Positions 92-57,369 of a stretch of DNA of 64,000 bases are shown here, one piece after another (positions within the stretch are counted from its first letter, which is position 1; each line of letters opens with the position of its first letter). The stretch spans positions 1,324 to 65,323 of the forward strand of contig JBIIRT010000002.1 in assembly GCA_044341405.1 (NCBI GenBank), in the 5' to 3' direction. Position numbers and translations under genes: made by a program. This stretch comes from Daejeonella sp. (GTDB lineage: Bacteria; Bacteroidota; Bacteroidia; Sphingobacteriales; Sphingobacteriaceae). The notes beneath the pieces are model-generated. The model made no database searches and had not been told where the DNA came from. It saw only the letters and a program-made list of their open reading frames with translations.

Positions 92-118
92 ATTTAACCT
101 GAGTTAGGTTAAATTTTT
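92..118 (+). terminator. Probable intrinsic terminator of the DUF1080 gene
   Basis: 9-bp perfect stem ATTTAACCT/AGGTTAAAT followed by a T run; AT-rich stem. Confidence 0.5.
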
Positions 119-127
119 CAGGACTAA

Positions 128-473
128 TTAGATTGACAAATTTTCTTTATTTAGGAAAGCAAGTTCTGTGATTCTTCGGTCACACAAGTCCCGTGTTCTG
201 CTGTAGTTTTTTGCAGTAGTTTTGTCTAAATTATTAAATTCCGTATTGCAAAAAAGCTACAGCTGCCACCAGGGTTTATTTAAAATGGCAGTTAGTCCTT
301 TTGCCGGGCTGTAGGTCCCAATGAAAAACAGAACCAGGTAAAATAAACCTTGCCGTAGGAGATATCTTCCGGCTATCCGTAATTTGAACCAGAACGCGAT
401 TTCTTGCCGGAAATACTCCGTAGGAAAGGACTGAAACAGCCTATAACACACAGGTATTGGTTTTCAAAATCAA
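128..473. ncRNA. Unassigned structured non-coding element, copy 1 (homolog at 56510-56839, inverted)
   Basis: Reverse complement shares a 29/31-nt block (397-427), a 20-nt identical block (251-270) and a long similar terminal block with 56510-56839; several stems; strand not resolved. Confidence 0.6.
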
Positions 474-622
474 AAATAAAGGCTCCAGAGCCTTGTCTGA
501 CAATTATGATCGTGTTTTTTACCTTTCCTTGTATCGAATTCAGGCTAAGTTAAGGAATTGCAATACAAAAGAACCTCCTGACCCTAAATAATGAAATAGG
601 GATTTAGAAACGATTGAGTCAT

Positions 623-650
623 AAAAAAGCCCCGGATTATGTCCGGGGCT
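623..650 (-). terminator. Intrinsic terminator of tRNA-Arg
   Basis: AGCCCCGGA/TCCGGGGCT stem followed by a U6 tract on the minus strand. Confidence 0.85.
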
Positions 651-652
651 TG

Positions 653-724
653 TGTGCCCAGAGGGATTCGAACCCCCATCAGCAGAACCGGAATCTGCAA
701 TTCTATCCATTGAACTATGGGCAC
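653..724 (-). tRNA. tRNA-Arg (anticodon CCG)
   Basis: Minus strand GTGCCCA...TGGGCAC acceptor stem, anticodon arm GCAGA-TTCCGGT-TCTGC, GGTTCGAATCC T-arm; CCA not encoded. Confidence 0.95.
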
Positions 725-55338: not shown

Positions 55339-56436
55339 ATGGCATTGCTTCATCAGTTGGCATTATCGTGTCTGCCGGGAATCGGACCGGTACTTGCAAG
55401 AAATCTTCTAAGCTATTGCGGTGATGCAGAGCATGTGTTTAAAGCAAAACGTAAACATCTTGCACAAATCCCTGGGATAGGTCCTAAAACGCTCGAGCAT
55501 TTAACTAATAATTCTGCATTGAAACGGGCAGAACATGAACTCAAATTTATAGATAAGTTTAAGATAAATGCTTTATTTATTACCGATGAGGAATATCCGA
55601 AACGCCTTAGAAATTGTGCAGATGCGCCAGTAACAATTTATTTTAAAGGAAATGCAAATCTAAATGCAGCAAAAGTTATCAGTATTGTTGGAACCAGAAA
55701 TGCTACTGATTATGGAAAAGAGATTTGCAGAACCTTAATTGACGACTTGAAAGTCCATCAACCTTTAATTATTAGTGGGTTGGCCTATGGCATTGATGCT
55801 GCGGCTCATAAAGAGGCTCTTAAGAACGAAATGTTGAATATTGCGGTGCTTGCTCACGGGCTCGATCGTATTTATCCTGCACAACACAGGGGAATGGCTG
55901 AGAAGATTATGGAGTGTGGCGGACTTATTACCGAATTTATGTCGGAAACAATTCCCGACAGAGAGAATTTCCCAAAACGAAACCGGATTATTGCAGGCTT
56001 GGCAGATTTAACCATAGTGGTGGAAGCTAATATCAAAGGTGGGGCATTAATTACTGCTGATCTTGCCAATTCCTATGATAGGGATGTTTTTGCTTATCCT
56101 GGTAGGATTAATGATGAGTTTAGCAAAGGATGTAATTTTCTGATTAAAACGAACAAAGCAAATTTAATAACTGGAGTAGCTGATCTAGAATATATCATGG
56201 GTTGGAATACTGAAAAGGTATCATCTGTAAAAACTCAATTGAGTTTGCCTATTAATTTAACAGGTGATGAGCAGATTCTTGCAGATATACTTTATGCTAA
56301 TGGCTGTATAGGGGTGGATAAACTTGCTTTTTTAACAGGTTTTAAGCAAAGCAAGCTCGTTATGACCATTTTAGGTATGGAAATGAAGGGATGTATTATT
56401 TCATTACCTGGCAAGGTGTATAAAATGACCCATTAA
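55339..56436 (+). CDS. dprA: DNA-processing protein DprA
   Basis: SIVGTR, ISGLAYGID, FPKRNRIIAG, VVEA..KGGALITA, winged-helix C-terminus. Confidence 0.96.
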   Translation: MALLHQLALSCLPGIGPVLARNLLSYCGDAEHVFKAKRKHLAQIPGIGPKTLEHLTNNSALKRAEHELKFIDKFKINALFITDEEYPKRLRNCADAPVTIYFKGNANLNAAKVISIVGTRNATDYGKEICRTLIDDLKVHQPLIISGLAYGIDAAAHKEALKNEMLNIAVLAHGLDRIYPAQHRGMAEKIMECGGLITEFMSETIPDRENFPKRNRIIAGLADLTIVVEANIKGGALITADLANSYDRDVFAYPGRINDEFSKGCNFLIKTNKANLITGVADLEYIMGWNTEKVSSVKTQLSLPINLTGDEQILADILYANGCIGVDKLAFLTGFKQSKLVMTILGMEMKGCIISLPGKVYKMTH

Positions 56437-56509
56437 ACTGCTTTTGACATAAGCAAAGCTAAAATAAGACGGTAATAATTAATGAGATTGGGCTCTGGTT
56501 AACAATAAT

Positions 56510-56839
56510 TTGTTTTTTGAAAGCAATAACTGTGTGGTTTAGGTCAGTTCATCTCTTTCCTCCGGAGTATTTCCGGCAAGTAATCGTTGTCTATTTCCCT
56601 TTGGTCGGTGTTGTCACCGTACCAAGAACCATCTATCAAATGGTCGGTGATAACACCAACCATAGGGAAGGAACAGTTGCCATTTATAATAGACCCGGGT
56701 GGCAGCTGTAGCTTTTTGCGAGGCAGATTTTTATGTTAAAAAGGAATTTAATGGCAAAAACTACGACAGAATACGGGACTAATGGGACCGAAGAACAACA
56801 GAACCTGCTTTATAAAACAACAGAAAATTTTCAATCTAA
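56510..56839. ncRNA. Unassigned structured non-coding element, copy 2 (homolog of 128-473, inverted)
   Basis: Same conserved blocks as copy 1; 75-nt paired module at 56595-56669. Confidence 0.6.
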
Positions 56840-56871
56840 AACAGCGCAACGAGATTTTATATCGACCCAGC

Positions 56872-57369
56872 TTAATGTTCATTTTTAGGAAAATCATATA
56901 AAATTAATTCACCTGTCCCTTGACTCAGCATTTGCCAGCTTTCAAATGGAAAGGATATCATAGCCATTCCACAGGTTGGAACATTATGAATATGTGATCC
57001 ACACAATTTATTTACCAGATCAGTTATCGAAGGATTATGGCCAAATAATGCAACAAAATCAGTCTTATCGTCTATTCTGTTAATACAATCAAGTAAATTA
57101 ATAGTCAGGGCATCATAAACTTCCATATCCTGGATAATTTCTGATTGGGGAATTTTAAATTCATCTGCAAAATATCGGGCAGTTGAGATCGCGCGTAAGG
57201 CCGGACTACTAAATAGTTTTTGAGGGATTAAATTCTTTTTTTTTAATCTCTTTGCCATTTCCTTAGCATTTTTTTCACCCCGCTCATTCAAAACTCTTTT
57301 AAAGTCCGGTTTTTTAAAATCGGTTTCTTCTGCTTTGGCATGACGAACTATCAGTAATACTTTAGGCAT
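56872..57369 (-). CDS. SixA-like histidine phosphatase
   Basis: LLIVRHAKA, DFKR.L..RG, SSPALRA..TA, GHNP. Confidence 0.9.
   Translation of the reverse strand: MPKVLLIVRHAKAEETDFKKPDFKRVLNERGEKNAKEMAKRLKKKNLIPQKLFSSPALRAISTARYFADEFKIPQSEIIQDMEVYDALTINLLDCINRIDDKTDFVALFGHNPSITDLVNKLCGSHIHNVPTCGMAMISFPFESWQMLSQGTGELILYDFPKNEH

Follow-up and report, generated by a model that had tools for sequence, protein, structure and literature searches.

The two copies of a structured repeat that lie in a 64,000-nucleotide stretch of Daejeonella DNA (the window, meaning the whole stretch that was analysed) belong to a large interspersed family of this lineage. The source genome (G000) is a 3.05-Mb metagenome-assembled genome (MAG) from lake water, in 226 contigs. 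Copy 1 occupies positions 94..553 and reads 5' to 3' on the minus strand (~460 bp, with ends placed from the sequence and from alignments of ends), and copy 2 occupies positions 56433..56875 on the plus strand (443 bp). An initial annotation of the window had described positions 128-473 as an inverted homolog of 56510-56839, and the reverse complement of the former is indeed collinear with the latter, with the same conserved blocks and the same variable stretches between them. The ~345-bp borders proposed at that time were too narrow, as the homologous stretches extend over 94-553 and 56433-56875, with 20-bp terminal inverted repeats (TIRs) at their ends, and the two copies then recognized grew to at least 113 loci when copy number was checked by nhmmer. 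Rather than a discrete two-copy noncoding RNA gene, the element is an interspersed repeat with more than 100 copies, TIR-bounded and polymorphic for insertion. More specifically, it is very probably a mobile repeat, non-autonomous, TIR-bounded and high in copy number, whose structured core is under selection and related to the Flavo-1 RNA motif.

The anatomy of the element is most complete in copy 1, where positions 4-472 of the family profile hidden Markov model (HMM) match C191:1405-1872, equivalent to positions 82-549 of the window. The 5' TIR (527..553, minus strand) reads TTAAC-TTAG-CCTGAATTCGATACAAGG and is a degenerate version of the consensus TTAACCTGAGTTCGATATAAGG; the 3' TIR (94..115, minus strand) corresponds to TTAACCTGAGTTAGGTTAAAT on the plus strand. 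A terminator previously placed at 92-118 is in fact this 3' terminal repeat and was not called by a terminator scan. The conserved 185-nt core (292..476, minus strand) is matched by covariance model R1 at G000:C191:1615-1799 with 208 bits. Its helix H2/H3 consists of the block CCCTTTCCTCCGGAGTATTTCCGGC paired with the block GCCGGAAG.TA.CTCCT.CGGCAAGG around a variable apex, after which come GGTTTATTTTACC and a hairpin TCGGG/CCCGG. An optional long-hairpin module (186..275, minus strand; CCCTGGTGGCAGCTGTAGCTTTTTTGC ... GCAAAAAACTACAGCAGAACACGGG) includes the 16-bp stem of the initial annotation, and a small terminator-like palindrome, AAGGCTCTGGAGCCTT followed by a T-run (479..494, minus strand), lies directly upstream of the core. 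Terminator-like hairpins of copy 1 were found by the scan on both strands. The long stems noticed earlier exist, the minimum free energy of copy 1 lying at z-scores of -3.0 (minus strand) and -2.4 (plus strand) relative to shuffled sequence.

Copy 2 possesses a core with an exchanged apex (56507..56648, plus strand; R1 match at C191:57830-57971, 61 bits), and its apex module (56595..56669, plus strand) is made of two hairpins of the TGGTCGGTGTTGTCACCG type that resemble repetitive extragenic palindromic (REP) sequences; such hairpins match 24 times within family loci and 26 times elsewhere. At its TTAA ends, this copy shares bases with two stop codons, that of dprA (56434-56436) and that of a convergent sixA-like gene (56872-56874). 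At the same junction (window 56431-56439 / 56870-56879) sister species have both stops overlapping in one TTAA, and the G000 dprA carries one additional codon (CAT).

Outside the element, the right-hand neighbor of copy 1 is a tRNA gene (653..724, minus strand, identified with Rfam) and not a protein gene. The terminator expected at 623-650 is present as a terminator-like hairpin behind this tRNA gene (627-651, minus strand, terminator scan). The tRNA is the sole Rfam match at gathering thresholds in the whole window; neither copy of the element matched any Rfam family, even in a permissive search at E<=10, in agreement with the earlier failure to match it to known RNAs. A small protein was considered and rejected: the 64-aa frame common to both window copies ranges from 9 to 82 aa among 44 copies, and start and stop are not shared.

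Searches of G000 with nhmmer returned 117 matches with copy 1 as the query and 137 with the family profile. When merged, these matches form the 113 loci, which cover 31.9 kb or 1.05% of the genome, and R1, a covariance model built from Daejeonella cores alone, finds 99 copies of the core. The consensus TIRs are identical at 20 of 20 positions (5' TTAACCTGAGTTCGATATAA, 3' TTATATCGAACTCAGGTTAA); the 5' end of the full unit reads TTAACCTGAGTTCGATATAAGG, the 3' end reads TTTTATATCGAACTCA(G/C)GTTAA, and the motif TCCGGCAAG is present twice as a direct repeat. The whole element is organized as a set of nested inverted repeats, comprising, from outermost to innermost, the terminal repeats, GGCTCTG/CCGGAGC, H2/H3, the TCGGG/CCCGG hairpin and the optional long hairpin. 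The paralogues are old, with a median identity of 68-73% and a maximum of ~92%. Deletion derivatives that retain both ends recur across genomes, and a subfamily in other genomes lacks the long-hairpin module, HMM positions 4-262 being joined to 364-472.

All loci of the family are intergenic. Only one of the 113 overlaps an open reading frame (ORF) of at least 110 aa, and convergent spacers hold 36 of 80 loci (45%) as against 12.9% of all spacers genome-wide, a 3.5-fold enrichment. Copies frequently abut or overlap stop codons, and in tandem gene contexts the element is oriented with the genes 17 times and against them 18 times. At 33 of the 113 loci a neighboring ORF is missing on one or both sides, in many cases because the locus is at a contig end (e.g. 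C222:2-384, C46:3-255, C118:3-455, C174:1-233), and Logan contigs end at the conserved blocks of the element. The family contributes to assembly fragmentation.

Selection on resident copies was assessed in 14 orthologous pairs (one locus in two species) that were verified by flank identity, with alignment columns classed by their conservation in all other copies. Orthologous copies differ at 3.4% of sites in columns conserved at 0.9 or more, 9.0% in columns at 0.75-0.9, 13.3% at 0.6-0.75 and 14.8% below 0.6. The rate rises as paralogue conservation drops (chi2 = 104), with a 4.4-fold difference between the extreme classes. The genes that flank 13 of the 14 pairs differ by 3.9% at first, 2.5% at second and 19.0% at third codon positions; by comparison with these rates, about 170 columns in each resident copy evolve as slowly as non-synonymous sites. 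Among paralogues, the internal blocks are conserved at 0.9-0.99 and the terminal repeats at 0.6-0.8. On resident copies, purifying selection is comparable in strength to that on coding sequence.

The structure of the core has likewise been retained. The core folds as one long, imperfectly paired hairpin whose internal loops are sequence-specific, and pairing persists where both partners have changed, as in pair 141-189 (GC 79 / TA 48) and, within the long-hairpin module, pairs 294-351 (GC 33 / CG 39), 305-341 (GC 44 / CG 24) and 297-348 (GC 58 / TA 19). In a MAFFT alignment of 70 diverse cores, for which helices were set by hand and then counted, 93% of cells are paired, as compared with only 31-55% in slid controls, and none of 500 shuffles scores as high as the real alignment in pairing or in covariation; pair 69-122 of this alignment is GC in 38 cores and UA in 19. 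The suggestion that the unannotated element is structured and under selection was therefore sound, being borne out both by position-specific conservation in orthologous copies and by compensatory helix changes. Neither fold energy nor the counts of G-U pairs was decisive as to strand. Helix H3 taken alone has 121 G-T against 47 A-C combinations for the forward strand of the element, an excess that arises via two subfamily-linked columns.

The distribution of the core extends beyond Daejeonella. R1 matches 96 of the 401 genomes searched from the order, spread over 5 of 27 genera, and three other genera of Sphingobacteriaceae contain 12-40 matches per genome. Cores in these other genera are compact (~170 nt) and lack the terminal repeats, and they keep H2/H3 via multiple compensatory changes (CCGGC/GCCGG to CCGAU/AUCGG; U-A to G-C); the 5' block TTTTG(G/A)AAAGCAAT is conserved across genera. 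In a sister genus the core also occurs in head-to-tail arrays of 3-4 units with a period of ~300 nt (G094:C28:244086-245154; G120:C1:4153459-4154239).

Six of approximately 21 such cores are matched on the opposite strand by the model of the Flavo-1 RNA motif (RF01705), an orphan motif described by Weinberg et al. in 2010 (PMC2864571), with scores of 26-59.5 bits. Two of the six lie above the gathering score of 42 bits and four at 26-38 bits; at G297:C9:314498-314648, R1 scores 48.8 bits and Flavo-1 scores 59.5 bits on the opposite strand. The Flavo-1 model gives no score to either window copy, at gathering (42 bits) or at E<=10, and similarity between the element and the Flavo-1 copies of G000 itself is weak by eye. 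These Flavo-1 matches in G000, 12 above gathering, all lie outside family loci (e.g. C61:1889-1969 and C24:8387-8467). Because R1 and Flavo-1 share sites in other genera and the Daejeonella copies fail the Flavo-1 model, the Daejeonella core is filed as a probable divergent relative of Flavo-1 and not as a member. The initial expectation of a new RNA or hairpin family is upheld insofar as Rfam has no entry for the family itself, and has to be qualified insofar as it has relatives and its core links to RF01705.

Flavo-1 itself behaves as a dispersed repeat and not as a single small RNA (sRNA) gene. Among 150 scored candidates, 13 Sphingobacteriaceae genomes from related genera contain at least 57-108 matches per genome above gathering. 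Flavo-1 matches in Flavobacterium psychrophilum lie in sense or antisense orientation to transcribed regions, or outside them (PMC9723704), an indifference to orientation that mirrors that of the element.

Comparison of related genomes reveals that the element is or was mobile. The family is present in 10 of 19 genomes of the genus, several with many copies, whereas other families of the class, represented by 12 genomes, gave no BLAST-level match. Twenty full-length G000 copies were queried, and for 18 of them the orthologous position was located in G017, G016, G007, G018 and G006. Among these 18, only loci 14 and 19 are filled at the orthologous position, with locus 9 filled in G007, and flank-to-flank empty sites occur at loci 2, 4, 5, 10, 12, 17, 18, 19 and 20; the orthologous sites are nearly all empty even in relatives that carry many copies elsewhere. 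The site of copy 2 is empty in the sister species G017 and G016 (...AAAATGA|CTTAATG..., 442 nt shorter than G000), and copy 1 is found in G007 and absent from G017, G018 and the closest relative G033. It is these species-specific empty sites in sister species that indicate mobility, past or present. No skipping joint, that is, no within-species empty site, was found at copy 1 in four lake metagenomes.

A TTAA-like motif is found at both ends of the element, and one is already there on the 3' side of empty sites. A clean TTAA or TA target-site duplication does not fit the length bookkeeping at the best-conserved sites. Two further proposals were rejected. An IS1380/piggyBac-like partner had been suggested by a presumed resemblance of the terminal repeats to those of ISEcp1, and the IS1380 family is absent from the carriers searched; and the single viral contig that contains the 19-mer has no family match, leaving a phage origin without support. 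At locus L268 (G033:C170), which is orthologous to G000:C56:577-1078, an unrelated insert of ~250 bp occupies the exact site of the element, and G017 is empty there. This insert is bounded by CGTGAGTTCG... / ...GTTCACGTTAA, which are similar to the family ends; these ends may have carried another cargo, or the site may be a favored target.

Insertions have accumulated at the apex of the core hairpin, a hot spot that has received REP-like hairpins, another miniature inverted-repeat transposable element (MITE) and a cargo gene. The REP-like hairpins, of the types GTCATTCCAGCGAAAGCTGGAAC and TGGTCGGTGTTATCACCGACCA, are found in other places as well, frequently as arrays; the element has an exchangeable central module because these small hairpins have inserted there. 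In two copies (G000:C22:4444-5307 and G000:C39:1444-2051) the apex harbors a second repeat family, at least ~430 bp long and GC-richer, with the ends CCGCTCATAGCCGCGGAGG / CCTCCGCGGCCATGAGCGG and ~19 further end matches in the genome. L231:703-1860 (G033), the orthologue of G000:C18:37665-38128, contains within the core apex a 315-aa lipoprotein-like ORF, a putative esterase/PHB-depolymerase-like protein, in an insert bounded by the inverted repeats TTAGTGGCAATTAA / TTAACTGCCACTAA.

A separate palindrome system occurs in the same genome. At G000:C88:4326-4682 lies a 153-aa Y1 HUH (RAYT/IS200-like) gene with palindrome arrays on both sides (CCCAGCTAAAGCTGGG, GGGCTTCAGCCC), and gene and palindromes together look like a REP-RAYT system. 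The short hairpins beside this gene differ from the 460-bp family, but relatives of the arrayed hairpins have inserted at the apex of that element.

Evidence for transcription comes from two independent lake metatranscriptomes, which contain contigs identical to the copy 1 core or differing from it at a single position. Contigs from X24 cover 159-309 and 331-481 of the window and one from X31 covers 274-429 at a depth of 5.4; the depths on copy 1 equal or exceed that of the neighboring ychF, and no contigs from these metatranscriptomes were found on the terminal repeats of copy 1 or on the spacer.

The explanation that best accounts for these observations as a whole, and one that appears likely, is a composite mobile repeat of Daejeonella with a selected core that is useful at the ends of transcription units. 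An enzyme recognizing the terminal repeats, of which none was found, would have spread the element in trans, and resident copies would be kept because their folded core is useful where transcription units end. The core could act as an orientation-tolerant hairpin cassette that would end, insulate or stabilize transcripts, or bind a host protein. A role at transcription-unit ends like that of REP sequences and bacterial interspersed mosaic elements (BIMEs), ERIC or Correia is tentatively the most likely one, and a free-standing sRNA is less likely than such a hairpin cassette.

A number of observations weigh against this explanation, both as to the role of the core and as to its means of spread. 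Blocks as tightly conserved as codon positions 1 and 2 exceed the needs of a plain terminator. RNAalifold, applied to the same raw MAFFT alignment of cores, gave just 7 pairs and nearly no consensus structure. The two strands are nearly symmetric in alifold energy (-100 and -103 kcal/mol) and in their counts of G-T (638) and A-C (521), consistent with the early remark that the G-U pairs share no common strand and leave RNA and single-stranded DNA undecided; a DNA-level role is as compatible with the data as an RNA role. The RNA evidence consists of sparse, unstranded contigs for which DNA carry-over is possible, and copy 2 has no RNA coverage in these metatranscriptomes, in which the organism is too rare.

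With regard to spread, the length bookkeeping leaves room for no more than 1-2 bp of target duplication at loci 10 and 12, and for as much as 5-7 bp at loci 19 and 20, which are AT-rich. In G000, no two terminal repeats spaced 1-4 kb apart enclose an ORF, and no such pair was seen among the matches listed in G017, G031 and G032. The adjacent mobile-element genes that had been suggested as a check did not appear either: no conserved ORF lies beside the copies, IS110 does not co-occur with the family and was rejected as a partner, and Y1/RAYT was rejected in the same way, its homologues being found also in genomes without the family (e.g. G018 and G001). MAGs, as many of the genomes searched here are, often lack insertion sequence (IS) elements. 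Finally, there are no paralogues above ~92% identity and hence no sign of recent activity.

Among the alternatives, the most durable is that the element functions at the level of DNA, with its hairpins acting as single-stranded DNA or cruciforms or its blocks as protein-binding sites. Candidate binders would be the mobilizing enzyme or a nucleoid protein, in the manner of REP sequences with RAYT, IHF or gyrase. The strand symmetry of the fold and the near balance of G-T and A-C favor this alternative, as do the indifference of placement to orientation, the TCCGGCAAG direct repeat, the presence of a RAYT-like Y1 gene with flanking REP arrays in the genome, and the repeated insertions into the apex, which would be expected of a loop exposed in DNA. 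On the other hand, neither a protein that binds the element nor an enzyme that acts on it was found, genomes that lack the family can still carry the RAYT-like gene, and copy 1 has some RNA coverage. A DNA-level role is accordingly judged unlikely.

It is rather improbable that the core constitutes a free-standing sRNA family, transcribed from its own promoter on the forward strand (minus for copy 1) as a product of ~150-170 nt that would comprise a 5' single-stranded part (GAAAGCAAUACCUGUGUG...), a long terminator-like hairpin and then GGUUUAUUUU, with the TIR-bounded element as a mere vehicle. The consensus does have an architecture of hairpin plus U-tract, the 5' block is conserved across genera, H3 has more G-T than A-C on the forward strand, the metatranscriptome contigs are confined to the core region of copy 1 (159-481), and purifying selection is strong. 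Nevertheless, approximately 100 paralogous sRNA genes in a 3-Mb genome would be unprecedented, and reading the upstream sequence revealed no convincing conserved Bacteroidota promoter (TTTG / TAnnTTTG). The G-T excess is largely due to the two columns linked to one subfamily, copy 2 lacks RNA coverage, the related Flavo-1 is oriented on the opposite strand in Rfam, and its matches in F. psychrophilum show the three placements noted above, in sense, in antisense and outside transcribed regions (PMC9723704).

An ordinary selfish MITE in decay, with blocks that reflect only the transposition needs of master copies, is very unlikely. The TIRs, many copies, subfamilies, deletion derivatives, patchy occurrence within the genus and lack of young copies are all typical of such an element. 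However, orthologous copies exhibit the 4.4-fold position-specific rate difference, even the least conserved columns evolve more slowly than neighboring third codon positions, conservation is higher in the internal blocks than in the terminal repeats, and the core is conserved in genera where terminal repeats are absent. The initial annotation had itself held that many copies with uniform decay, no covariation and no transcript would indicate a known kind of decaying repeat; the copies are many, but decay is not uniform, the helices covary and core-matching RNA contigs exist. More improbable still is a stand-alone RNA that guides a transposon enzyme (IscB/TnpB omega RNA or IS110 bridge RNA): a structured, multi-copy core of a few hundred nt on a mobile element does recall HEARO/omega RNA, yet HEARO and other Rfam families gave no match, the family and the IS110 domain do not occur together, full copies neither contain nor adjoin a conserved ORF, and the element has TIRs, which IS200/605 and IS110 elements lack.

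A broader reading, which goes beyond the composite mobile repeat preferred here and remains speculative and somewhat doubtful, is that the 185-nt core, Flavo-1 and the intermediates between them form one superfamily of host-beneficial structured nucleic acids, a domesticated mobile cassette with a specific partner. Under this reading, each Sphingobacteriaceae genome would carry tens to hundreds of copies, every one under selection of coding strength, and terminal repeats would have been gained in Daejeonella, after which the core spread as a mobile cassette. It would be a 'symbiotic' repeat whose putative molecular partner may be a protein or an RNA.

The significance of this locus lies partly in what it suggests about Flavo-1, which has stood in Rfam since 2010 as an orphan 'sRNA' without function. 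Flavo-1-like hairpins may be part of a larger class of very-high-copy interspersed repeats in Sphingobacteriaceae, of which at least one branch moves as a TIR-bounded unit and the resident copies appear to be under purifying selection comparable to that on coding sequence. Whether Flavo-1 is a repeat of transcription-unit ends or of DNA structure, or else an RNA gene, is now a testable question. For annotation, a single repeat family accounts for ~1% of these genomes and fragments their assemblies, and its TTAA ends overlap the stops of the neighbors of copy 2.

The element can be compared with three groups of known systems. Like Flavo-1, it forms long imperfect hairpins with conserved internal-loop nucleotides, is specific to Bacteroidota, lies between genes in many copies and is placed regardless of the direction of transcription (PMC9723704); the Daejeonella core differs in its length (~185 nt as compared to 76 nt), in its loop sequences and in being contained within a 460-bp TIR-bounded unit. 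The REP/BIME and REPIN-RAYT systems, here taken from Enterobacteria and Pseudomonas, are likewise high-copy intergenic palindromic repeats enriched at gene 3' ends. They too are mosaic, modular, old and vertically kept, possibly with a single-copy enzyme acting in trans, and G000 has REP-like hairpins and a RAYT-like gene of its own. The Daejeonella unit is, however, 5-10 times longer, has true terminal inverted repeats and has no link that could be found to the RAYT-like gene.

Host-functional MITEs include Correia/CREE in Neisseria, ERIC/IRU in enterobacteria, and BOX and RUP in pneumococcus. As is generally known of them, these are non-autonomous elements with TIRs, present in ~100 copies, that form hairpins once transcribed and contain promoter-like or terminator-like parts, features shared by the Daejeonella element. 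Correia duplicates TA, whereas no consistent target duplication was seen here; furthermore, the Daejeonella element is much larger than this group, and its core surpasses the ends in conservation and is common to genera in which the ends are absent. No description of this repeat family was found in the literature. Thus, the family is best regarded as a REP/MITE-like structured repeat related to Flavo-1, of a kind that is known while the family itself is new, and what is unusual for such repeats is the purifying selection at each resident site.

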